From the NCBI RefSeq assembly GCF_054482525.1, contig NZ_CM137006.1: a stretch of 64,000 bases of DNA. One strand, 5' to 3'. Every line of letters starts with the position of its first letter. Position 1 is the stretch's first letter. The position numbers and the translations under genes are program-made. Shown here piece after piece: positions 14,999 to 25,246 of the stretch. Under the pieces are notes generated by a model, which did no database searches, was not told the origin of the DNA, and was given only the letters and a program-made list of their open reading frames with translations.

Positions 14999-15453
14999 TA
15001 CGCCTCCTGCTTGTCGCGCAGCAGCTGGAACTCGCAGCTCTGCGGAATAGTCAGGTTGCAGCCAATATTCATCGCCCAGGCTTCAACCTTACACAGGAAG
15101 ACATACATCTCTCCGGTATCAAGATCGGAGGTATGGCGTAACGACTGGATAGTAGTGATTTCGCCGGTTACGACATCAACCAGGTCCTTGGTTTCATAAC
15201 CGAGGTATGTGTGTTTGAGAGCATCTTTTACCCATGCTGCGGTAGCGAACGATTTCCCCCTGCTGATGAGGTATTCACTGATTTCGCTGTACCACATATG
15301 GCTGAGTGCATTCTGGGAAAGACTGCGTTTCTCTCGCCACGGTTTAAGCACCATGCGAAAGCATTTGCCTTCCTCCAGATAAGGCTGGATCTGCTGGCCG
15401 ATAGCGGTGAAGTTGCCGCGATGTAATTTGATGCCGTCTTGTGAGAGGTTCAC
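14998..15453 (-). CDS. Nin-region protein of the DLP12 YbcN type
   Basis: 151 aa, [45 protein letters not shown]..., recalled as YbcN-like. Confidence 0.8.
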
Positions 15454-15667
15454 GCTTCACCTCCGCAGAGCTCAAACGCTAGATGCAAAGAATTGCAGGT
15501 GCATTTCTGCATCTGTGAAGGGAGAAGAGAGTTTGGATTGTATGTGCGCATAAACGTCCCCGTTTAGCGCAGAAGTCACCGGAGTTGTTCAGGCTCCGGT
15601 GACATAATTATGCCGTGTTGATTTCCCAAAATCAAAATCGATAGAATTGCTCCTTCTTAAAACACTT

Positions 15668-16465
15668 TTACTCTCTGGAAGCTTTTCTTATCTCTCTTGG
15701 TGTTATATTAAAACGATTATGAAATCTTTCAGTAAAACGAGAAGGACACTTATAACCATTTTCTCTGGCAATCTCGCTTATAGGTTTTACCGTCGTTTGT
15801 ATAGCAGACAACGCATTATTTAACCTCACATCGTCCAGTATACTTTGGAAACTTACCCCCTCGCTTGCTAGACGGCGATGTAATGTAGAAACAGAAATGT
15901 AGAGATATCGTGCAACCTTGTTTGCTGTCCATTTTGTGCCGGGTTCGGATAGCAGCAGGCTATAACAACGACTTATCAATGATTGTTTACTATATGATAA
16001 AAGTAAATGATTAACATGATTCACTCCTAACGAAAGTAGAACGCCCATTGCTAAGTGTTCCTGAATTTTAGTTGAGAAGCCTCGGGAAACAGATGTTTTT
16101 AGTTGCTCCCAACAATATATTAACTCAGGATTCTGAGGTAAAAAGAAACTTGTTTTGTTACGTATTTGATCAGTTACCGTATAAAGTTTTTGGAAACTCT
16201 CAATTAAATCAATGGGTAAGTAAAGCATTTCTGCAAGATAAAGCCCTGCTTCAGGATAATTCTCAATATAAAATTCATAACCACAAGGAAATAATATTAT
16301 TTGATTATTATCAACAGTTAAAGTATGCGTCTCCCAATTGATAACTTTCTTTCCCTGACGGATACGACACAAAGCTGGCATAAGAGGCTTAACCCTATGA
16401 ATCTCATGATGTTTATGCATTCGTATTTCTTCGATCTTTAAGTTAGTCTTACCTCTTGCCAGCAT
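15668..16465 (-). CDS. AraC/XylS-family transcriptional regulator (ybcM-like), prophage cargo
   Basis: 265 aa with C-terminal AraC-type HTH (...[39 protein letters not shown]...); AT-rich gene. Confidence 0.85.
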
Positions 16466-16474
16466 ACTCTCACC

Positions 16475-17026
16475 CTACTTTATCTCATAAACTGGTGTTA
16501 TCTCAGCGGTTGCGATTTTATTAGCATTAAGCATATAACCAACTAACGCTCCGCTGGAGTTAGAATCTACAGGAATCTTTTCAGTTTTTAGAGCCCATAC
16601 TTTAAACTGGTAATGATGTGGTTTATCTCCTTTAGGAGGACATGCGCCACCAAACCCAGCATAGCCAAAATCATTTCGGCCTTGAACAGCACCAGTCGGC
16701 AGTTTTGTTCCATCACGTCTCCCTGCATCAACGGGCAAATATGTTACTGTTGCTGGAATATTAACAACAGTCCAATGCCACCAACCACTGCCTGTAGGTG
16801 CATCTGGATCATATACAGTTACGGCAAAGCTTTTGGTACCTTCAGGAACACCAGACCAGGTTAATGAGGGCGATGTATTACCACCTTCACACCCAAATCC
16901 AGAAAAGACATGAGACGTTGTAAGTTGCTCTCCTGTTTTTATTTCATTACTAGTGACCTGAAATGCTGCAGCCTGCGCAGAAAATGTTATGAATGCCAAT
17001 ACAGTTGAAACGATAAGTGTTTTCAT
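16475..17026 (-). CDS. Periplasmic PEBP/YbhB-family protein (ybcL-like) with signal peptide
   Basis: 183 aa, N-terminal signal peptide MKTLIVSTVLAFITFSAQAAAFQ; PEBP-like motifs (DPDAPTGSGWWHW, GYAGFGGACPPKGDKPHHYQF). Confidence 0.85.
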   Translation of the reverse strand: MKTLIVSTVLAFITFSAQAAAFQVTSNEIKTGEQLTTSHVFSGFGCEGGNTSPSLTWSGVPEGTKSFAVTVYDPDAPTGSGWWHWTVVNIPATVTYLPVDAGRRDGTKLPTGAVQGRNDFGYAGFGGACPPKGDKPHHYQFKVWALKTEKIPVDSNSSGALVGYMLNANKIATAEITPVYEIK

Positions 17027-17243
17027 AAAAACCTCTTTGTTATGACCTATCGTTATTTTATTTGATATTCCTTTATCTCATTATGCATAAAGGCGCAATG
17101 TTCATGCAAAAGCAATCACAATTGTACCCCCAACCCAATTATTTGCCACAATATACACAAAGCACATTGATACTATCTAAAAACTCTGCTTTATTATTAG
17201 TAATACCTACGAAAGTTGGTGTTATTTTTTAACCTACCATTCA

Positions 17244-17293
17244 AAATACGTGACATACACCATTTTGCTCATAATAATTTGTCACGTATTTTC
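17244..17293. repeat. Perfect 13-bp inverted repeat AAAATACGTGACA / TGTCACGTATTTT with 24-bp spacer
   Basis: Read directly from sequence in the AT-rich spacer between the recombinase 3' end and the PEBP gene start. Confidence 0.6.
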
Positions 17294-17490
17294 AGTATTT
17301 GAATCTGCGACCAAGAGTTCTCACCTAACAAATGATTAAGATTGTATAGCTCATTTACTACCCCAATACAGCCGTACAAAACTCGCTTGTGGGAGCAAAC
17401 AAAGTAATTACCCATTAAGTTTCGTTAAAGATAATTAATTCTGTCTTGCACTTTATCATCATAGCATAACTTAAAATCCGAGATCATTAT

Positions 17491-19017
17491 TTAGAAATAA
17501 ATCTCACCATCAACCATATATTTGAGAGCACTTATCGCCTGCTGGGCGGATATTACTTTCATTAAAGGATAGTGTTTAAAAACAATGCCATTCATAAAAT
17601 AGATATCACAGGTTTTATTATCCGTATTAATTATGATTTTTTCGAATGTTTTATAGGCAAGTGTACGGCATAACTCTCGTCCATTTTTACTGGTTAAGTC
17701 AATAGCATAAAAATCACTGAATGAATTTACACCTTTACTCTTCAAAGTTTTCAATGATACCGAAGCCCTTCGTAATTCCTTATCTAATAGTCTTATTTTC
17801 TCTGCTATAGCGGTAACTTCAGGCGCGACAGACAATGCAACGATTAAATTATTAATTTTCATCTGAAGCTCAATAATTTTTAACTCTAAAGTTTCATTAG
17901 CATCTTTCTTGTTTTCAACTGGTTGAATTTTGCTACAATTAAAAAGCAATTCATTAATGATATTATAATCAACCAAATCTCTTTTTATTGATGGCCTGTC
18001 ACATCGATGTAATCTTCTCATCGGACAAACATAATAGCCATGCAAACTTCCAGATACCGCATGAACAATCATGGTATTACCACAAGCCTCACACTTCATA
18101 ACTGTTCGAAGTAGATTTATTAGCATAGGATTCTTGCTACTATTGCTAATACCAAAAGGTGCCAACCGAATTTCCTGTACAGCGTAAAACAAATCATCTG
18201 ATATGACTCTGGGATAATAGCCAGCGATTTCACTTATCCCTTTCCCTCTTGCACGATATGAAGGTACGCATATACCTATCAGAGCTTTATTCGCTAATAA
18301 TTTTTCAATTACAGAAGGTCCCCATGCACTTTCTTTTCCTGAGAAATTCTTTACAGCATGATCATTTAAATACTTGGCTATTGCATTCAATGAGCGCCTT
18401 TCCATCCTGAGTTTAAAAATTAGCTCAATAGTTTTCACCCTGTCGGGGTCTGGAACAAAAGCCGTTCTTTTGTCATCTAAGGAGAGCCATCTCGGACAAG
18501 ACGCCGTCATAATCGTACCTGATTCCAGTGCATCCTGCCGTTTTTTCTTCCATGATAATTTAACCCGACTTGACTTTATCTCGCTTTCTTCATTTGCCCT
18601 TTGTGCTATAAGTATGGCTTTTATTAATGAATATGGCTCATTCAAAGAGTCAATATTATAGACTGTATTGTCGCAAAGAGTTATAACATCAATACCGTGA
18701 TTCAAAATCAATTTCAGACGTTCAATCGCTTCACCGACTTTTTCTCTTGAAAGTCTGTCCAGACTTTCAACTAACAATGTAGTTCCTGGCAATATATAAC
18801 CATGCTCTATAGCATCTAAAAATTCCGAAAAAGCTCCTGATTGTGCATGCTTTCCTTTGAATGCACTTAATCCTAAATCTTCATATGTTATGGTATCAAG
18901 ATAATAATCACTATTTACCTTTAACCATTCAGCAATAAGTCTTCTCTGTCGGTTTAATGAGTCGCCAGACATCTGACCTGGTGATGAAAATCGCATATAT
19001 GCTATGGCTTTTTTCAT
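17491..19017 (-). CDS. Large serine recombinase (ybcK-like), 508 aa
   Basis: N-terminal resolvase/invertase catalytic motif (AIAYMRFSSPGQ...SLNRQ), central recombinase domain, C-terminal Cys-rich zinc-ribbon (CEACGNTM...CPMRRLHRC). Confidence 0.85.
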   Translation of the reverse strand: MKKAIAYMRFSSPGQMSGDSLNRQRRLIAEWLKVNSDYYLDTITYEDLGLSAFKGKHAQSGAFSEFLDAIEHGYILPGTTLLVESLDRLSREKVGEAIERLKLILNHGIDVITLCDNTVYNIDSLNEPYSLIKAILIAQRANEESEIKSSRVKLSWKKKRQDALESGTIMTASCPRWLSLDDKRTAFVPDPDRVKTIELIFKLRMERRSLNAIAKYLNDHAVKNFSGKESAWGPSVIEKLLANKALIGICVPSYRARGKGISEIAGYYPRVISDDLFYAVQEIRLAPFGISNSSKNPMLINLLRTVMKCEACGNTMIVHAVSGSLHGYYVCPMRRLHRCDRPSIKRDLVDYNIINELLFNCSKIQPVENKKDANETLELKIIELQMKINNLIVALSVAPEVTAIAEKIRLLDKELRRASVSLKTLKSKGVNSFSDFYAIDLTSKNGRELCRTLAYKTFEKIIINTDNKTCDIYFMNGIVFKHYPLMKVISAQQAISALKYMVDGEIYF

Positions 19018-19271
19018 GGTGACACCTGCTAACGTATGCTTTTATAAACCTTAGTGGTGGGATATAATTTTTGTTTAATTTTTATTTAAAAAGACAATTA
19101 AGGTCACATTATCTTGAATATACAACAATAATCGTATTGCAATTTTCTTACGCCATAATCTTGAAGGCACAAAAGAATACATAAAAAATAAAGACATTAA
19201 CAAAAAGCATAAAACGAGGCTCATATAAATATAAGAGCCTCCATATTTTAGTCGTTTAGAAACAAATTATT

Positions 19272-19604
19272 TTAATGTGGTGTACTTCGTGACAATAAAT
19301 TAATAACCAACACACCGGCACAAATCAACATCATGCCTATAATGGCTGGCAGGTCCAGCCGTTGGCCGAAAAATCCCCATGACAGTAAGCTAATCAGGAC
19401 AATACCGACTCCTGACCAGATAGCATAAGCAATCCCTGTAGGAATATAAGCCAGCGTCTGAGCTAATAACCAGAATGATGCACAATAACAAATAATTGTA
19501 CCAACAGATGGCCATAACCGTGTAAAACCTTCTGAAAACTTCATTAAGGTTGTACCAATGACCTCTGCAAGTATTGCACCACCAAGATAAATATAAGGGT
19601 TCAT
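19272..19604 (-). CDS. emrE: Small multidrug-resistance efflux protein EmrE
   Basis: 110-aa product from MNPYIYLGGAILAEVIGTTLMKFSEGFTRLWPSVGTII..., reads as EmrE; track ORF trimmed to Met19. Confidence 0.88.
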   Translation of the reverse strand: MNPYIYLGGAILAEVIGTTLMKFSEGFTRLWPSVGTIICYCASFWLLAQTLAYIPTGIAYAIWSGVGIVLISLLSWGFFGQRLDLPAIIGMMLICAGVLVINLLSRSTPH

Positions 19605-19671
19605 AGCATATTCTTTCCTGTTCAAACTGGAGAGAATTGTACTACAGTTTGAACTCAACTCACCTGTTTCA

Positions 19672-19974
19672 TCATTGTGTACCCATTGATGTTCTTTTAT
19701 ATACCCTCAATACCCGTTTCATCGCGGCACTCTGGCGACACTCCTTAAAAATCAGATTCGTGCTCACCTTTCCTTCCCGTTCTTCTCTGGTAGCGAACCG
19801 GTAATACACCGTTCGCCAGACCTTACCATCAACGACCAGGATTCCTGCCCGCGCCATTTTAGCCGCAGCCTGATTTATGCTGGTTACGGTTGCGCCTGTT
19901 ACCGCGGCAACGTCCTGTGCACAGAAGCTCTTATGCGTCCCCAGGTAATGAATAATTGCCTCTTTGCCCGTCAT
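19672..19974 (-). CDS. ren: Ren (Rex-exclusion escape) protein
   Basis: MTGKEAIIHYLGTH.SFCA.DVAA.TGATVTSINQAAAKMARAG... reads as lambda Ren. Confidence 0.85.
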   Translation of the reverse strand: MTGKEAIIHYLGTHKSFCAQDVAAVTGATVTSINQAAAKMARAGILVVDGKVWRTVYYRFATREEREGKVSTNLIFKECRQSAAMKRVLRVYKRTSMGTQ

Positions 19975-20672
19975 ACGCTTGCTCCTTTCAGTCCGAACTT
20001 AGCTTTGATTTCTGCGATCTTCGCCAGAGCCTGTGCACGATTTAGAGGTCTACCGCCCATGACAGGAAGTTGTTTTACTGGTTCAGGGATCGCCTCACCA
20101 CGGTTAATTCTCGCAGTCATATGGACAAGCTCATCTGCGGCCTTACGGCGTAATTCCGCATCAGTAAGCGCATTGGCCCGCATGTTCTGATACAGGTTGG
20201 TAACCAGCCAGTAGTGCGCGTTTGATTTCCACGGATAAGACTCCGCATCCGGATACAGGCCTCGCTTCCGGCAATACTCGTAAACCATATCAACCAGCTC
20301 GCTGACGTTTGGCAGTCCGGCGATAACGGATGCTTCTTCCCGGCACCATGCAACAAACTGCCCGGGTGATGGCAGAAATGGTCGATTCTGCCGACGGGCT
20401 ACGCGCATTCCTGCGTTAACCTGTTCCATTGTGGTGATCCCGTTTTCCCGGAAAGCCAGAACCCACTGGCGGCGGATTTCGTTCAGTTCGTTCTGGTCAC
20501 GGTTAGCCAGACTCGCCGGGAAAGTTGCCAGTAACTGGCTGAACACACCGTTGATGATCTGCGCTACCTGCTGTACCTGCGGCTTTTCGTCGTACTGTTC
20601 CGGCATGTTGTTGGCGATCCGGCGCATCTGCTCACGGTCAAAGTTAACCATCTGTGCGGCGATGTTTTTCAT
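19971..20672 (-). CDS. P: Replication protein P (DnaB helicase loader)
   Basis: 233 aa, MKNIAAQMVNFDREQMRRIANNMPEQYDEKPQVQQVAQIINGV..., reads as lambda P. Confidence 0.93.
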   Translation of the reverse strand: MKNIAAQMVNFDREQMRRIANNMPEQYDEKPQVQQVAQIINGVFSQLLATFPASLANRDQNELNEIRRQWVLAFRENGITTMEQVNAGMRVARRQNRPFLPSPGQFVAWCREEASVIAGLPNVSELVDMVYEYCRKRGLYPDAESYPWKSNAHYWLVTNLYQNMRANALTDAELRRKAADELVHMTARINRGEAIPEPVKQLPVMGGRPLNRAQALAKIAEIKAKFGLKGASV

Positions 20673-21598
20673 AGCTCCACCCCGTAAATCCAGTCAGTGT
20701 TCGTCAGGTCGAATTTTGGTTTGCCGGCTGTCACGCCAGCCTGTTGCTTGTTACGGTTGATTTCGAGTTGGGTCCACTTGTCGCGGAGTTTGGCCGGACT
20801 TAGCACGTTACCGGACCAGAAGTTGTCCTGGCATGCCCAGCGGAACAGCACGCACATGTCGCGGTGGTTACGTCCGTCACGTTCACGCATCAGGCGGATA
20901 TCGTTAGCCCACCCTGCAAAATTCGGTTTTCTGGCTGATGGCGCGATGGTCTTCACCATGTCAAACATCCACTCTGCGGCGGTCAGGTCTTCTGCTGTCC
21001 CCCACTTTCTGCCGCTCTGAATTGCAGCATCTGGTTTCACCACAGGAAGATCCTTTTCTGGTTGGTCAGAGGATTCTCCAGAATTCTCGGACGAAAAAGG
21101 TTTTATATTGTCTTTTGTTAGTTTGTCTTTTGTGTTTACCTGATTCGGGTAAACGCCTTTACCTGATTTGGGTAAACTTTTCTTACCTGATTCAGGTAAA
21201 TTTACCTCTTTCAGGTAAACTTTATTTTTCTTACCTGATTCGGGTAATGTTGACCATTCACTGACCACATTATTAATACCGATATTCCGCCCGCTCTGAA
21301 TCAAAATCCCACGCTTTACCAGAACACTTTTTGCAGCAGAACACTTGTGCGGCAATATCCCGGTCAATTCGGACAGTTGCTCGTTGCTCACCCAATCCAG
21401 TTTTTTATTAAAGCCATATGTTTTGCGCATGACAGCCAGGAAGACCAGAAGCTGGTGCTGTGTTAATCCGGCCAGCATCACAGCTTCCAGCAACTCATTT
21501 GCAATGCGCGTATAACCATCATCGAGATCTGCCACGCGCGGCTCCTTTTGTGCCGCATCCGGCACAGGAAAATTGAATATCTCAGCAGTGTTTGCCAT
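20669..21598 (-). CDS. O: Replication initiator O (lambda O-like variant)
   Basis: N-terminal domain O-like (...VADLDDGY.R......LEA...); contains the iteron array; start trimmed to first ATG (Met31); the upstream TTG/GTG alternative is not excluded. Confidence 0.8.
   Translation of the reverse strand: MANTAEIFNFPVPDAAQKEPRVADLDDGYTRIANELLEAVMLAGLTQHQLLVFLAVMRKTYGFNKKLDWVSNEQLSELTGILPHKCSAAKSVLVKRGILIQSGRNIGINNVVSEWSTLPESGKKNKVYLKEVNLPESGKKSLPKSGKGVYPNQVNTKDKLTKDNIKPFSSENSGESSDQPEKDLPVVKPDAAIQSGRKWGTAEDLTAAEWMFDMVKTIAPSARKPNFAGWANDIRLMRERDGRNHRDMCVLFRWACQDNFWSGNVLSPAKLRDKWTQLEINRNKQQAGVTAGKPKFDLTNTDWIYGVEL
21136..21248. repeat. Origin of replication iterons: five copies of TTACCTGATTCGGGTAAA-like 18-mers inside the O gene, with adjacent AT-rich stretch
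   Basis: Copies at about 21136, 21159, 21183, 21202 and 21231, each an internal inverted repeat (TTACC...GGTAA); AT-rich run at 21090-21135. Confidence 0.75.
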
Positions 21599-21684
21599 AA
21601 TTCCTCCCGCAATGAGTGTGTTACGATTTGCACCTGAAAGTCGGTTCTGTTCCCGCAGACCGACTTTCGCCATTTTTGAACCTG

Positions 21685-22224
21685 TCATATTGCCCCCAGC
21701 ATGGTGGTTACCATCGCCATCAATGGACCAGCCAGATCCGGGTCCACTCGAAACATCGACACAATGCCTTCACTCATCTCCTTCAGTTTCTGGTGGCGTG
21801 GTGCGTTGAGAATGACCGCCTGCTTTGCCTCACAGAGTTCCTTTTCCATTTCAGCCAGCCGAGCCATGAAGCTATCCTGCTCAACCAGGTGGCCGCGATA
21901 TTCCAGCGGTAGTACCGCCAGAATTGCCGGGGTCAGTTCACGCACGTTATTTCGGTATTTTTCAGAATCGAATTTGTTATCGAGGAAGCGGAACAGCTTC
22001 TGGCGTGCACGGCTGACATCATCAGGGAAATCGATAGTGCCGCCGCCCTGCTCCCGATACTCATTCACAATGAGTGTGGCAACGACATCCTGATTATCTT
22101 CAGCCGACCAGGCGCGGACGGCATCACGGATTTTTTCGTGGCCTGGCACCTGTTTTGTTTGAGAACGATTTATCACCGCAGTCGGGCTAAATCCGCTAGT
22201 CTGTTGGTATGTAAGTGGTTGCAT
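21685..22224 (-). CDS. YdaT-family protein in the cII position
   Basis: 179 aa; segment ...EYREQGGG...TPAILAVLPLEYRGHL... resembles Rac YdaT; position immediately after the cro-like gene. Confidence 0.55.
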   Translation of the reverse strand: MQPLTYQQTSGFSPTAVINRSQTKQVPGHEKIRDAVRAWSAEDNQDVVATLIVNEYREQGGGTIDFPDDVSRARQKLFRFLDNKFDSEKYRNNVRELTPAILAVLPLEYRGHLVEQDSFMARLAEMEKELCEAKQAVILNAPRHQKLKEMSEGIVSMFRVDPDLAGPLMAMVTTMLGAI

Positions 22225-22293
22225 AATTGACTCCTTTAGTTTGAATTGACTGTTAAGTTGATTGCTTATTGTTAAAGAGCGTGAAATGGAAAT

Positions 22294-22524
22294 TTAAGCT
22301 GCGTTCTTTTCGGTGTGTGGAAACAACTTCGGAAGATCCGGGCGAATCTGGTATGCCTTCACTACTCCACCAGTAGCCGTAACAATGCTGCCGACATGTT
22401 CAGGGGATACCTTTGCTTTGTTGTGAAGCCACTTATAGACGGCCTGCTGTGAAACTTCGCAGGCAGCGCCCAGTTTCTTTTGTGAACCAACGATATTGAT
22501 CGCTGTTTTGATAGCTGGATTCAT
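22294..22524 (-). CDS. Cro-like HTH regulator (YdaS type)
   Basis: 76 aa, HTH ...KKLGAACEVSQQAVYKWLHNK...; divergent from the cI-like gene. Confidence 0.7.
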   Translation of the reverse strand: MNPAIKTAINIVGSQKKLGAACEVSQQAVYKWLHNKAKVSPEHVGSIVTATGGVVKAYQIRPDLPKLFPHTEKNAA

Positions 22525-22539
22525 AACAACCTCCGTGGT

Positions 22540-22620
22540 TAATTTGAATCAAGATTAAAACTATGGTTGTTTTTAGTCAACAACCATTTTCGTTTGATGG
22601 AATAAAACCTTGGTTGTACA
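22540..22620. promoter_or_regulatory. Right operator/promoter region (OR-like) between divergent cro-like and cI-like genes
   Basis: Palindrome ATGGTTGTT-N7-AACAACCAT at 22563-22587 and related AACTATGGTT / CCTTGGTTGT half-sites; the same motif family recurs at 24335-24390. Confidence 0.5.
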
Positions 22621-22628
22621 TTTGGACT

Positions 22629-23318
22629 ATGAAAACAACACTCTCAGAAAGACTTAAAGAAGCCAGATTAGCGCGAGGCCTTACACAAAAGGCGCTTGGG
22701 GATTTGGTCGGGGTTAGCCAAGCTGCTATTCAGAAAATCGAAACAGGGAAAGCTAACCAAACAACTAAAATCGTGGAGATCGCGAACGCTTTGGGTGTGC
22801 GCGCAGAATGGTTATCTTCTGGCGTTGGAAATATGTCAGACAGTACAGTGCAACCAATACAATCAACTGTCAGCCATTCCAAATACTTTAAGATTGACGT
22901 TCTTGATATAGAAGTGAGTGCCGGGCCGGGAGTCATCAACCGTGAATTTGTAGAAGTTCTACGCTCGGTTGAGTACTCGTTTGACGATGCTCGTCACATG
23001 TTCGATGGCAGGAAGGCGGAAAATATCCGCATCATTAACGTGCGTGGTGACAGCATGTCAGGAACGATCGAACCAGGTGATCTGCTGTTCGTTGATATCA
23101 CGGTTAAATCTTTCGACGGTGATGGTATCTATGCGTTTCTGTACGACGACACAGCCCATGTAAAGCGCCTGCAAATGATGAAAGATAAGCTACTGGTTAT
23201 CTCTGATAACAAGAGCTACTCACCGTGGGACCCGATCGAGAAAGACGAGATGAACCGGGTGTTCATTTTCGGGAAGGTTATTGGCAGTATGCCGCAGACG
23301 TATAGGAAACACGGATAA
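22629..23318 (+). CDS. Prophage repressor, LexA/S24 peptidase type with N-terminal HTH
   Basis: MKTTLSERLKEARLARGLTQKALGDLVGVSQAAIQKIETG... (HTH); C-terminal ...NVRGDSMSGTIEPGDLLFVD...HVKRL... (S24 Ser/Lys motifs); trimmed to first ATG. Confidence 0.8.
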   Translation: MKTTLSERLKEARLARGLTQKALGDLVGVSQAAIQKIETGKANQTTKIVEIANALGVRAEWLSSGVGNMSDSTVQPIQSTVSHSKYFKIDVLDIEVSAGPGVINREFVEVLRSVEYSFDDARHMFDGRKAENIRIINVRGDSMSGTIEPGDLLFVDITVKSFDGDGIYAFLYDDTAHVKRLQMMKDKLLVISDNKSYSPWDPIEKDEMNRVFIFGKVIGSMPQTYRKHG

Positions 23319-23397
23319 TCAGCTGCGTGCTGATGAGGCTTTTGGGTAATGCGCTGAAAGAATTCTTTATAAAAATAACATTACGGGAAAGGCAAAA

Positions 23398-23667
23398 ATG
23401 AGTGATAAAAAACTTATAAAAAAATCAAATAACTGTGTAGATGCATATGCTGATGCATTTGGATATTCATCTTTTGGGGAAGATGACGATCGCTTAGGCT
23501 CCATATCTTTCTTTCAGCATGTTACAGAATGGGGCGCTGATGGTAGTAATGACACTGAAAACGTAAAGTACAACATTGCAACAATTCGCATGACGGAAGA
23601 TTTAATGCTTAAACTCGCTGACTTTATTCGCGATCAGCATGATAGAGCTAAAACCAATAAGTCATAA
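23398..23667 (+). CDS. Hypothetical acidic protein (89 aa), first gene of the repressor-downstream moron
   Basis: ATG start with upstream AAAGG; no family recognised; C-terminal KYNIATIRMTEDLMLKLADFIR is reminiscent of a ribbon-helix-helix strand-helix. Confidence 0.5.
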   Translation: MSDKKLIKKSNNCVDAYADAFGYSSFGEDDDRLGSISFFQHVTEWGADGSNDTENVKYNIATIRMTEDLMLKLADFIRDQHDRAKTNKS

Positions 23668-23675
23668 TATTAACA

Positions 23676-24116
23676 ATGAAACACGGTTATTACGAAGCTC
23701 CAAACCTAACTGAAAAGCTTGAACAAGCGGCAAGATCATCATCTTTGCACACTGCAGCATTTTCTCAATCAGCTGGTATGTCTGGCGGTAATGTACCTAT
23801 GCTACAATCAAGTGGTAGCGGTGGCTCTGGGAGTAATAATGTGCTTGAATCGAAAGTTGCAAAGCTTGAGTCTGATGTGTCCTATATCCGACGTGACGTT
23901 GATGAGCTTAAGACAGATGTCAAATCTATCGACAGAAACATGATCGCTGTTCTGGAGCGACTCGATTCAATAAAAGATTCACTAGCCAAAAAACCCTCCA
24001 TCGATGCTGTCGATAGAAAGATTTCAGACGCAAAGCTTGCGGTATTGCTTGGTGTTCCAGCAATCATCGCTGCAGGAACAGGTCTTTATAAGCTATCAAT
24101 GTACTTTTTTCTTTAG
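23676..24116 (+). CDS. Hypothetical coiled-coil protein with C-terminal membrane anchor (146 aa)
   Basis: 8-bp gap after upstream gene; Gly/Ser-rich linker (SSGSGGSGSNN), charged heptad-like stretch, C-terminal hydrophobic helix LAVLLGVPAIIAAGTGLY; no family recognised. Confidence 0.5.
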   Translation: MKHGYYEAPNLTEKLEQAARSSSLHTAAFSQSAGMSGGNVPMLQSSGSGGSGSNNVLESKVAKLESDVSYIRRDVDELKTDVKSIDRNMIAVLERLDSIKDSLAKKPSIDAVDRKISDAKLAVLLGVPAIIAAGTGLYKLSMYFFL

Positions 24117-24191
24117 TGCTTAAGAAACTGCTCGCCACCTTGCATTACGCAAAGCGATTTTTCATTCCCTATTACCCTTTCTTATCCATAT

Positions 24192-24222
24192 AAACCCGGC
24201 CCCAGTGCCGGGTTTTCTTTTG
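24192..24222 (+). terminator. Intrinsic terminator closing the repressor-moron operon
   Basis: AACCCGGC-CCCAGT-GCCGGGTT followed by TTCTTTT. Confidence 0.65.
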
Positions 24223-24334
24223 CCTCCCCTCATCACACAAACCGTTCAAAAAACCACCACGACCTCGCTTCAGTTATCGCTATGCGATGCAAGTCACAAA
24301 ATAAATCCATCTTAAATACAACCAGTTATATCTA

Positions 24335-24390
24335 AAACAACCAATAAAACAACTTTTGTTGTTGACGATAAAACAACTATGGTTTTAAAT
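24335..24390. promoter_or_regulatory. Left operator/promoter region (OL/pL-like)
   Basis: AACAACCAAT, palindrome ACAACTTTTGTTGT and AACTATGGTT (same motif as the OR region); candidate -35 TTGACG, 17-bp spacer, -10 TTAAAT reading rightward. Confidence 0.45.
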
Positions 24391-24583
24391 GAATTCATCG
24401 CAACAACACAACGATACGGCAATCACCTGATTCACCGTTGCGATGACCGCTTAGATCCGCAGCTTGAATTTCAGCAGGCTCCGGGGAGTGCGAGGGGTGA
24501 AGCGGACGCGTGAACGTCGGTGTGACCAGCTGAAATCAACTCAACACTTCATACCTCAGTCGCTTCAACGAGGCGACTTAGTT

Positions 24584-24874
24584 ATGACAACCGGCGGCCA
24601 TCCACCGCCTGAATACGCGCAGAAGTCTCTATATGTTCAGCAGCCCAGCTTACGGGCAGGAGTTTTTATGGTTCATCAACATTACGGAACGCAGACCGTT
24701 AATCGAGGTGCGGTCATGCCAGGAATGCTGGTCAAACACAAAGATGGTACCTGGACTGCATCAGCTAATTTACGCGGACGGCTTTATCTGCATCGCGGCA
24801 TCGAGCGCACTTATACCCGTGACTTGCTCGTGGAAGTTTTTCTCGACGGGCGCGGCAACGGTCTGAATCACTAA
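24584..24874 (+). CDS. Hypothetical early-left protein (96 aa from first ATG)
   Basis: Only ORF between pL-like promoter and gam; track ORF starts at TTG 24464 with an Arg-rich stretch (GVKRTRERR) upstream of the first ATG; no similarity to lambda N, kil or cIII recognised. Confidence 0.35.
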   Translation: MTTGGHPPPEYAQKSLYVQQPSLRAGVFMVHQHYGTQTVNRGAVMPGMLVKHKDGTWTASANLRGRLYLHRGIERTYTRDLLVEVFLDGRGNGLNH

Positions 24875-24949
24875 TCCCCTTTCCTGTTTACCTAATCAGC
24901 CTGGCATTTCGCGGGCGATATTTTCACAGCCATTTTCAGGAGTTCAGCC

Positions 24950-25246
24950 ATGAACGCTTATTACATTCAGGATCGTCTTGAGGCTCAGAGCTGGGCGCGT
25001 CACTACCAGCAGATCGCCCATGAAGAGAAAGAGGCAGAACTGGCAGACGACATGGAAAAAGGCCTGCCCCAGCACCTGTTTGAATCGCTATGCATCGATC
25101 ATTTGCAACGCCACGGGGCCAGCAAAAAAGCCATTACCCGTGCGTTTGATGACGATGTTGAGTTTCAGGAGCGCATGGCAGAACACATCCGGTACATGGT
25201 TGAAACCATTGCTCACCACCAGGTTGATATTGATTCAGAGGTATAA
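24950..25246 (+). CDS. gam: Gam, RecBCD inhibitor (short form)
   Basis: 98 aa, [21 protein letters not shown]...; reads as lambda GamS; upstream in-frame stop prevents a long form. Confidence 0.9.

Follow-up and report, generated by a model that had tools for sequence, protein, structure and literature searches.

The cII gene of phage phi80 was reportedly defined genetically by Ogawa et al. in 1988. [quoted passage not shown] YdaT of CP-933P binds TTGATT-N6-AATCAA (the YdaT box) and activates PRE933P (PMC8630535, PMC9986795), and in Rac a box at the start of ydaT raises the activity of a reverse promoter within ydaS as much as 29-fold (PracR4; PMC11879457). Tetramers were shown for both YdaT proteins (PMC9986795, PMC11879457), and the structure of the CP-933P protein, 8bt1, was described as a "CII functional analog". 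Thus, box binding, tetramerisation, and reverse-promoter activation have all been demonstrated by others on homologues (PMC8630535, PMC9986795, PMC11879457).

In the window, that is, the whole stretch of 64,000 nucleotides analysed here, open reading frames and Pfam assignments gave the gene order cI <-> cro-cII-O-P-ren. The repressor, the two genes of interest, and the operator region are located as follows.

22629 to 23318, plus strand: cI-type repressor (HTH_3 and Peptidase_S24), divergent from cro; assigned by Pfam and by an annotated 690-nt CDS in a relative.
22525 to 22628, no strand assigned: putative cI-cro intergenic operator/promoter region with inverted and direct repeats, its function proposed by analogy to oR.
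22294 to 22524, minus strand: cro-like gene (YdaS family, 76 aa), the first gene of the rightward early operon; PF15943, phrog_35, and likeness to HK639 Cro.
21685 to 22224, minus strand: cII-like gene (YdaT family, phi80 type, 179 aa); PF06254, phrog_163, likeness to phi80 cII, and an AF2 model.

The 179-aa gene is the second one in the operon divergent from the prophage repressor and lies between the cro-like gene and the replication genes, an order also found in phi80, HK225, HK639, mEp237, 4C10, and PhiR47_2. Both ORFs of the pair are intact and have good ribosome-binding sites, which is AAGGAG, 7 nt upstream, for the 179-aa gene. The pair very probably encodes the Cro-like and CII-like lysis/lysogeny regulators of a lambda-like prophage, of the phi80-type kind. 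The repressor ORF spans 22563–23318, but its likely start is 22629, where the annotation of a 99.9% identical prophage in strain TD225-C4 puts it; read from 22563, the gene would overlap the operators. The 104-bp cI-cro intergenic region contains GGTTGT/ACAACC dyads, for example, ATGGTTGTT-N7-AACAACCAT at 22563–22587, and a pR-like sequence (TTGACT-17-TAATCT) on the minus strand. By analogy to oR, this region would comprise the operators shared by the Cro-like protein and cI.

The 76-aa protein proved to be a small single-domain HTH protein of the YdaS family, matching the Pfam family YdaS_toxin (PF15943) with E=4.1e-17 and 62.2 bits (cut-off 30). Its match to P22_Cro was below the cut-off (22.8 vs. 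30.2 bits), and the Pfam scan gave no match to lambda Cro. It also matched phrog_35 (1.5e-27), HK639 Cro is 62% identical to it, and the closest solved structure is the prophage Cro 3bd1 (E=7e-4), with another Cro, 5w8y, also near.

The 179-aa protein matched YdaT_toxin (PF06254) along residues 67–154 with E=2.6e-29 and 101.9 bits (cut-off 21), which was the sole match in the Pfam scan, so that the protein does not belong to the lambda CII family (Phage_CII). The match to PHROG 163, "CII-like transcriptional activator", covered residues 17–179 (E=1.5e-66). Among the phage proteins, it is 65.6% identical to the phi80 cII product (annotated in JX871397 and X13065), 66% to mEp237 CII, and 52% to the cII products of HK225 and HK639. 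The AF2 model (pLDDT 83.1) contains helices at residues 29–43, 45–58, 70–82, 88–104, and 119–138 onward, and a further long helix at 143–159, that is, the YdaT-type fold, an all-alpha POU-like HTH followed by a long C-terminal helix. Foldseek comparison of this model with the PDB found significant similarity only to 8bt1 and 3c4r (probability 1.00, TM 0.66–0.68), the next match having E=0.3. R79 in ARQKLFRFLD aligns with QKIFRWLD of 8bt1 and 3c4r, and the recognition-helix motif QK(L/I)FR(F/W)LD is conserved in the alignment of 31 family members, where F78 and R79 each reach at least 90%. The arginine equivalent to R79 is needed for binding in both studied homologues (R60 in CP-933P, R57 in Rac; PMC9986795, PMC11879457). 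As judged by sequence, the YdaS/YdaT family matches of both genes are far beyond chance, and the 179-aa protein appears as a functional analogue of lambda CII with no homology detectable at this level. These results bear out the earlier note on this DNA, which had seen a YdaS-like HTH gene instead of lambda Cro divergent from the repressor and a YdaT-like segment in the next product; its remark that Rac YdaT is toxic when over-expressed also agrees with published work (PMC5700377, PMC11879457).

Downstream of the pair, the following features were found.

21573 to 21679, plus strand: candidate oop/M3-like antisense RNA gene in the cII-O spacer, with promoter TTGAAT-17-CATAAT (promoter scan), a hairpin at 21636–21668, and then a T-run.
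20669 to 21598, minus strand: replication initiator O (Pfam Phage_rep_O), probable start M31 (ATG at 21598, RBS GGGAGG).
19971 to 20672, minus strand: replication protein P (Pfam Phage_lambda_P, 5.4e-62).

The fold of the RNA has a z-score of −3.3, and its region aligns with the annotated M3 RNA of phi80 and the M3-like RNA of HK639, the changes in the stem being compensatory. The Rfam scan of 19000–25000 gave only chance matches below threshold, and this RNA is in no curated family. The PHROG matches to O start at residue 31, and ori iterons are located within O at approximately 21133–21250. Since P is 99.1% and O is 66.7% identical to the lambda proteins, the description of an otherwise lambda-like replication region with a YdaT-like gene in the cII slot, also made in the earlier note, holds true, the position of the gene being in agreement with it as well. 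The same note had called this combination unusual, which proved to be wrong: the cro-cII-O-P-ren module occurs in 2223 of the 5426 complete E. coli genomes (~40%) and, with 97–98.5% DNA identity, in the temperate, plaque-forming phage isolates PhiR47_2, PhiR5_1, and IdasGreatGrand, while phi80 carries a pair of the same kind. The pair is therefore real but ordinary. The same cII accompanied by a different cro is present in phages 4A7 and Lambda_4C10, and in all five of these phages the genes are annotated as Cro/cII.

Taken together, it is highly likely that the two genes, carried by a lambdoid prophage that is integrated at icd, are functional equivalents of Cro and CII and make up a decision module of the phi80 type. 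The analysis established family membership and fold, the genetic position and prevalence of the genes, and the conservation of the DNA dyads; the mechanism can be proposed as follows. The 76-aa YdaS-family protein would be a Cro-like repressor, which is made first from pR and contends with the cI repressor (S24 type) for the dyad operators of the 104-bp intergenic region. The 179-aa protein would be a CII of the phi80 type and belong to the long forms of the YdaT family, with a five-helix POU-like HTH (approximately residues 29–104) and then long helices, which form a four-helix-bundle tetramer in the solved homologues; thus, a tetrameric HTH regulator is expected. By homology, it may bind TTGAT(T/A)-N6-(A/T)ATCAA dyads (TTGAT-N8-ATCAA), and from a site in its own 5′ coding region, it would switch on a leftward (here plus-strand) establishment promoter reading antisense through cro into cI, by which lysogeny would be favoured after infection. 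CII would be limited by the oop/M3-like antisense RNA of the cII-O spacer and possibly also by proteolysis via its conserved hydrophobic C-terminal tail. For this allele, we infer by analogy the box binding, the tetramerisation, and the reverse-promoter activation, as well as the place of the promoter and the mode of CII turnover.

The search for candidate YdaT boxes around the two genes yielded two dyads.

22160 to 22177, no strand assigned: candidate CII (YdaT) operator inside cII codons 17–22, minus strand GTGATAAATCGTTCTCAA, the conserved +48 dyad.
22535 to 22552, no strand assigned: weak YdaT-box-like dyad between the pR −10 box and the cro RBS, minus strand TTGATTCAAATTAACCAC, with 2 core mismatches.

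In 242 related loci, which were gathered with narrow alignment and single-protein queries, perfect-core boxes were counted in silico, and 205 were found where ~3.5 were expected (~60x enrichment). All perfect boxes fell into three places, namely the cro start of one immunity type, cII codons 17–22, and the promoter upstream of ninB. The experimentally defined YdaT box thus marks three conserved positions in hundreds of related phages. The dyad at +48 of cII was present at 148 of the 154 unique cro-cII junctions, in three CII subfamilies, and it is perfect in the ENT1 type. Codon 22 of cII is CAA in 163 of the 169 unique genes, compared with 23% CAA at other Gln codons; this bias indicates selection at the DNA level. 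The dyad at 22535–22552 is not significant alone. In the second immunity type, a comparable region holds a perfect box, which overlaps the ATG of cro, and the racR-ydaS intergenic region protected by YdaT in Rac is also of this kind (PMC11879457). The direct repeat AATTGACT, found twice (22225 and 22244), and a TTGATT half-site at 22258–22275 (3 mismatches) were also considered, but both were rejected as conserved operators because they are not shared by the second immunity type, whose cII is the same.

The third place contains the strongest box of the window.

15575 to 15635, minus strand: nin-leader element, consisting of box, promoter, and hairpin, upstream of the ylcH-like orf33 (15551–15450) and ninB.

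The perfect YdaT box TTGATTTTGGGAAATCAA at 15635–15618, the only exact match to TTGATT-N6-AATCAA in the 64 kb (0 expected), lies over the −35 box and the spacer of a sigma-70-like promoter. It is followed by the −10 box CATAAT at 15612–15607 and the hairpin GTCACCGGAG-CCTGAACAA-CTCCGGTGAC at 15603–15575. In phi80, HK225, HK639, CobraSix, KO-TP1, 4C10, and phage 82, the half-sites, the −10 box, and the loop do not vary, in contrast to the spacer and the stems. A box with at most one core mismatch and then a −10 box was found in 125 of the 164 related loci having at least 8.5 kb downstream of cII, and we infer that the element is linked to CII. Lambda, used as the negative control, lacks a YdaT box throughout its genome and carries a terminator at the position of this promoter. 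Enterobacter phage ENT1, which has the leader and gave no tblastn match to cII, was discarded as a control, as it encodes a diverged long-form CII. Neither can the hairpin be regarded as a nut (boxB) site, because the annotated phi80 nutL core CACGTAAACGTG is unrelated to the CCTGAACAA loop. The Rfam scan of 15300–15800 gave only sub-threshold chance matches, the hairpins belong to no curated family, and no description of this element was found in the searchable literature.

One of the YdaT-box positions is thus an uncharacterised promoter with a structured leader ahead of the nin/Q region, which is also present in DLP12 of E. coli K-12. We tentatively propose, at somewhat below even probability, that phi80-type CII controls, beyond the establishment promoter, a small conserved regulon via YdaT boxes, including the promoter upstream of ylcH-ninB...rusA-Q. 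There, a perfect TTGAT(T/A)-N6-(A/T)ATCAA dyad spans −35 to −18, and the structured leader has two hairpins. If true, this would be a direct link from CII to the late genes, a role played in lambda by the paQ antisense RNA. DLP12 contains an identical element and no cII, so Rac YdaT could act on it in trans, from which cross-talk between the two prophages would follow.

The names "Bacterial toxin YdaS/YdaT" in Pfam and "toxin YdaT domain-containing protein", the RefSeq label of the 179-aa homologue, along with the inhibition of growth upon over-expression of Rac YdaS or YdaT (PMC5700373, PMC5700377, PMC11879457), would suit a type II toxin–antitoxin module with one protein as poison and the other as neutraliser. 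This is very improbable, since the idea was born of a prediction program and direct tests gave it no support (Jobling, PMC5917428; Jurenas, PMC8630535), YdaT of CP-933P had no toxic effect (PMC8630535), and lambda CII is also toxic when over-produced, yet it is no toxin (PMC5917428). Both proteins are HTH DNA-binding regulators, and their genes occupy exactly the cro and cII slots of viable phages; context and literature thus largely refute this explanation. It is scarcely conceivable that the pair is an inert leftover of a cryptic prophage in decay, without current function. Many E. coli copies do lie in prophages with pseudogenes, such as bet and a methyltransferase in TD225-C4, and DLP12 of K-12 keeps part of the same region without cII. 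However, besides the intact ORFs with their good ribosome-binding sites, the pair shares 97–99% identity with genes from phages that were obtained as plaques on E. coli C and K-12, and in the prophage of the window, int, xis, red, O, P, Q, and the lysis and head genes are all intact.

The 179-aa protein might also serve mainly to repress or block the lytic operon (at the pR/cro leader and at the nin-leader promoter, which precedes Q) or to act on genes of the host. The strongest box of the window covers −35 to −18 of the nin-leader promoter, a typical position for a repressor, the start of the pR transcript and the cro RBS are covered by a second, weak site, and in Rac, YdaT protects the promoter region of ydaS and also binds upstream of the host gene rcsA (PMC11879457). 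We consider such a main function unlikely: the +48 site is kept in every subfamily, the homologous Rac and CP-933P sites activate transcription of the repressor (PMC8630535, PMC11879457), and the phi80 homologue bears the name cII. Moreover, repression is compatible with the proposed role as CII rather than exclusive of it, lambda CII having several targets, too. Some observations count against this CII-type role, namely the ~26–27% identity to the two biochemically studied YdaT proteins, the 2 core mismatches in both the +48 dyad of the window and the dyad at 22535–22552, the difference in cro-cII intergenic sequence between two immunity types using the same cII, and the result of a simple sigma-70 consensus scan of 21500–23500, which detected no plus-strand establishment promoter and, within 22180–22530, no plus-strand promoter.

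The main value of assigning the pair to the Cro/CII type is the correction of annotation, as the "toxin YdaT/YdaS" labels in Pfam and RefSeq are misleading: the pair is a standard Cro/CII-type decision module of a very common, phi80-type family of E. coli temperate phages. The nin-leader box could allow a non-lambda CII to tie late-gene expression to the decision for lysogeny and, likewise, the regulator of one cryptic prophage to reach into another.

Among the known systems, phi80 (gene 30/cII/M3 RNA; JX871397, X13065) resembles the locus in the length class of CII (179 aa here, 180 aa in phi80), the N-terminal extension MxxLxYQ and the C-terminal tail PLM(A/T)MVT(T/S)MLG, the order cI <-> cro-cII-(oop-like RNA)-O-like-P-like, the +48 dyad, and the conserved nin-leader box, −10 box, and hairpin. 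In contrast, the Cro of the window is only marginally similar to gp30 and is nearer to HK639 Cro (62%), replication relies on genes 15/14 in phi80 and on the lambda O/P type here, and phi80 has the TTGATA/TATCAA variant of the box. CP-933P YdaT (8bt1; PMC9986795, PMC8630535) shares the Pfam family, the fold (TM 0.66–0.68), the recognition-helix Arg, and the slot after a YdaS-like gene, and the prophage of the window contains one exact match to its operator consensus TTGATT-N6-AATCAA. However, it is a short form (~27% identity, 141 aa) with neither the N-terminal extension of 28 aa nor the C-terminal tail, and its strong box is placed at the ydaS end and not inside ydaT. CP-933P is also defective, with the repressor PaaR2 linked to a toxin–antitoxin pair.

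RacR/YdaS/YdaT of the Rac prophage of E. coli K-12 (close homologue in the PDB, 3c4r; PMC11879457) are similar in the divergent repressor followed by a YdaS-YdaT operon. They would also be similar in the YdaT box at the ydaT coding start, which activates the reverse promoter for the repressor in Rac, and in the toxicity of over-produced YdaT. They differ in the short form of YdaT (~26% identity), in RacR, which is not an S24 repressor, and in the place of the box, which is over the start codon in Rac and in codons 17–22 here; Rac also lacks a described nin-leader element. Finally, lambda has the same positions and presumably the same logic, i.e., Cro versus CI at shared operators and CII acting on repressor establishment, a CII site that lies within the coding part of cII, and a small antisense RNA encoded between cII and O. 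Nevertheless, its Cro and CII have no sequence or family relationship to the pair in the window, and lambda CII, an asymmetric tetramer, recognises direct TTGC-N6-TTGC repeats, while the YdaT tetramer has 222 symmetry and sits on an inverted repeat (PMC9986795).

The earlier note had placed a YdaS-like helix-turn-helix gene divergent from the repressor and, next to it, a 179-aa gene with a YdaT-like segment at the cII position of a lambda-like replication region. This observation was confirmed in full, since both ORFs found in 21685–22524 (minus strand) matched the corresponding Pfam and PHROG families, the repressor gene is divergent, and O and P are the neighbours. The features and candidate sites are as follows, the YdaT box being the inverted repeat TTGATT-N6-AATCAA.

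22629–23318, divergent from the pair: most likely extent of the repressor gene (HTH and Peptidase_S24)
22535–22552: box-like site with 2 mismatches, between the pR −10 and the cro ribosome-binding site
22294–22524, minus strand: 76-aa ORF, Pfam YdaS_toxin PF15943 (E=4.1e-17, 62.2 bits, cut-off 30)
22160–22177: candidate +48 operator GTGATAAATCGTTCTCAA, window copy with 2 core mismatches
21685–22224, minus strand: 179-aa ORF, Pfam YdaT_toxin PF06254 (E=2.6e-29, 101.9 bits, cut-off 21)
21573–21679, plus strand: conserved oop/M3-like small antisense RNA gene in the cII–O spacer
15575–15635, minus strand: nin-leader element, consisting of a perfect YdaT box TTGATTTTGGGAAATCAA, a promoter and a hairpin

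The 76-aa ORF remained below threshold for P22_Cro in the Pfam scan; it also matched PHROG 35 (“transcriptional repressor”), its product is 62% identical to HK639 Cro, and the closest solved structures are prophage Cro proteins. The 179-aa ORF, preceded by AAGGAG, matched PHROG 163 (“CII-like transcriptional activator”, E=1.5e-66). The 104-bp spacer between the repressor gene and cro contains GGTTGT/ACAACC dyads and a pR-like promoter. Downstream of the pair lie O (Phage_rep_O) and P (Phage_lambda_P), 66.7% and 99.1% identical to those of lambda, and then ren, emrE and the nin genes as far as Q; the element that contains them is a lambdoid prophage adjoining icd. Two ORFs of 89 and 146 aa lie directly after the repressor gene (23398–24116, plus strand) in the position of lambda rexAB, a slot filled by GevT/GevA in PhiR47_2. 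Neither gave a Pfam family over threshold, and the 146-aa ORF showed only a weak coiled-coil-type match and, at its C-terminus, a hydrophobic segment; the two could encode exclusion functions expressed from the prophage.

Casjens recognised YdaS and YdaT as Cro and cII homologues in 2003, as noted by Jobling, who added that a toxic effect of over-expression is not enough to class them as toxins (PMC5917428). In CP-933P, both YdaS and the repressor PaaR2 bind intergenic operators, and toxicity of YdaT was not detected (Jurenas et al., PMC8630535). The solved YdaT structure consists of a POU-like HTH and a four-helix-bundle tetramer, and its operator was mapped to TTGATT-N6-AATCAA (Prolic-Kalinsek et al., PMC9986795). 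Rac YdaT targets ATGATT-N6-AATCAA overlapping the ydaT start codon, from where it activates a reverse promoter in ydaS about 190 bp away up to 29-fold; its further targets are the racR–ydaS intergenic region and the host gene rcsA, and it also recognises the box of CP-933P, although the two proteins are only 30% identical (Wons et al., PMC11879457). In view of this published work, the module in 21685–22524 is of an already known kind and among its commonest alleles.

While the domains and their slot stood as described, the combination is not the unusual one that the earlier note had taken it for; its interpretation is thus partly supported. A 1-kb query (21600–22600) matched 2223 of 5426 complete E. 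coli genomes, nearly all at ≥95% identity and 1506 of them across at least 80% of its length. In tblastn searches of phage records, cII-annotated genes in 16 records (15 distinct phages, including PhiR47_2, PhiR5_1, IdasGreatGrand, 4A7, Lambda_4C10, D2, 1W, 3W and Perceval) were 95.5–99.4% identical to the 179-aa protein, followed by mEp237 CII (66%), the phi80 gene annotated as cII (JX871397; “cII gene” in the early-region record X13065; 65.6% over the full length) and HK225 and HK639 cII (52%). PhiR47_2 (host listed as E. coli C) shares the whole cI-cro-cII-O-P-ren-emrE layout (98.5% identity across the searched kilobase), whereas phages of the 4C10 type have the same cII-O-P with another cro/cI. 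The family of the 179-aa protein has only Enterobacterales-type sources and occupies little sequence space, with 111 clusters at 50% identity.

Against solved YdaT structures, phmmer matches of the 179-aa protein were weak (8bt1, E=1e-3; 3c4r, E=2e-3), spanning the HTH domain and keeping the recognition helix QK(I/L)FR(W/F)LD. An AlphaFold2 model built from a 31-sequence family alignment (mean pLDDT 83) has disordered residues 1–24, a compact helical domain at 29–104 and then long C-terminal helices. Confident Foldseek matches in the PDB were limited to 8bt1 (“YdaT transcription regulator (CII functional analog)”) and 3c4r (probability 1.00, TM 0.66–0.68), all others having E≥0.3. Relative to the short YdaT of Rac and CP-933P, this phi80-type long form has about 28 extra N-terminal residues and an extra conserved hydrophobic C-terminal tail, PLMAMVTTMLGAI (residues 162–179), which, speculatively, might act as a degradation signal in the manner of the lambda CII C-terminal tail. 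Codons 17–22 of the N-terminal extension (residues 1–28, predicted to be disordered) are the site of a conserved DNA dyad.

The oop/M3-like RNA gene has the promoter TTGAAT-17-CATAAT (21573–21601) and a terminator hairpin (21636–21668, z=−3.3) followed by a T-run ending some 6 nt short of the cII stop codon, and the annotated phi80 M3 RNA and HK639 M3-like RNA align with it. Its presence in the spacer would place the start of O at M31 (21598) rather than at that of the longer ORF overlapping cII. The 339-aa O ORF (20669–21688, minus strand), the length given in public records, is probably 30 codons too long: PHROG and Pfam matches begin at residue 31, and the ATG at 21598 follows a GGGAGG ribosome-binding site and is overlapped by the oop-like promoter's −10. 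Inside O, at about 21133–21250, there are iterons of the ori type (TACCTGATTCGGGTAAAC-like).

Judging from position and homology, the Cro-like YdaS would oppose the S24 repressor at common operators, and the CII-like YdaT, probably a tetramer, would bind YdaT-box dyads and turn on leftward (plus-strand) repressor transcription. A simple sigma-70 scan of 21500–23500 did not locate the establishment promoter. Candidate operators were sought in 242 loci, 3.67 Mb in all, that surround long-form cII genes from the window, phi80 and ENT1 subfamilies. Perfect-core boxes (TTGATn-N6-nATCAA) numbered 205 versus about 3.5 expected, and all except one lay at three positions: +48 of cII, the pR/cro start and the nin leader. 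The dyad at +48 from the cII ATG was present with ≤2 core mismatches in 148 of 154 unique junctions and is perfect in the ENT1 type, while the peptide over it varies by subfamily (VINRSQ, MINRAQ, LISIYQ). Of 169 unique genes, 163 use CAA as codon 22 (as do 18 of 19 representatives below 90% nucleotide identity), whereas 77% of the other Gln codons of the same genes are CAG; this bias argues for selection on the DNA of the +48 site besides the peptide. A perfect box spans the cro ATG in one immunity type. The +48 site is placed in a similar way to the Rac box, which lies at the start of ydaT, and to lambda's CII site within cII.

The nin-leader element, together with a possible YdaT-box regulon, is the single item that may merit follow-up. 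The exact box occurs once in the 64-kb window (15618–15635; 0 expected), between the DLP12-like moron block (ren-emrE-ylcJ-ybcK-ybcL-ybcM) and the ylcH-like orf33, then ninB. On the minus strand (rightward) it forms the −35 (TTGATT) and spacer of a promoter with the −10 CATAAT at 17 bp and a hairpin directly after; in the phage 82 record (X92588) the putative −35/−10 are already annotated and the hairpin is labelled “possible regulator-binding site”. An alignment of eight phage leaders (window, phage 82, 4C10, HK639, KO-TP1, CobraSix, HK225 and phi80) showed no variation in the half-sites TTGAT and ATCAA, the −10 or the hairpin loop; the 6-bp box spacer is free, inner positions alternate (T..A, A..T, T..T), stem changes are compensated, and no homology extends distally beyond the box. 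Of the 164 loci having ≥8.5 kb downstream of cII, 125 contain a box (≤1 core mismatch) and, after it, a −10. The first hairpin carries the 9-nt loop (C/T)(C/T)TGAACA(A/C), also given as CCTGAACA(A/C), in 57 of 58 distinct leaders, on many different stems that vary with compensation (47 distinct stem/loop combinations); one related locus has the hairpin in three tandem copies. The structured leader (15450–15603, minus strand) continues with a second hairpin (conserved GGGGAC loop; stems TAAAC/GTTTA or ATTTAA/TTAAAT), a conserved CACAGATGCAGAAATGCACCTGC and the 33-codon ylcH-like ORF. It matches no Rfam family; identity with the phi80 nut site was considered and rejected.

Every complete phage genome whose leader homology extends to the box encodes a YdaT-family CII, a co-occurrence confounded by physical linkage of the modules and relatedness of the loci. 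From this and from motif identity with the experimentally defined box we infer that CII may bind the nin-leader box. The geometry suggests repression of the promoter by occlusion, activation being the other direction. The only paper using “YdaT-box” in the literature searched (PMC11879457) does not mention the element. Such a box is absent from the whole lambda genome, and the ren–ninB spacer of lambda contains a terminator instead of this promoter. In E. coli K-12, DLP12 (L259, 8285–8350) carries, flanked by ybcM and ylcH, an element identical in box, promoter and hairpin, and it has no cII of its own; hence, Rac YdaT might act on the DLP12 element in trans. The gene order ren-emrE-ylcJ-ybcK-ybcL-ybcM-ylcH-ybcN (15454–19974, minus strand), in which ybcK encodes a 508-aa serine recombinase, is the same as in cryptic DLP12. 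Since this block lies here between P and ninB within an apparently complete prophage, its shared order suggests an origin of DLP12 in this type of phage.
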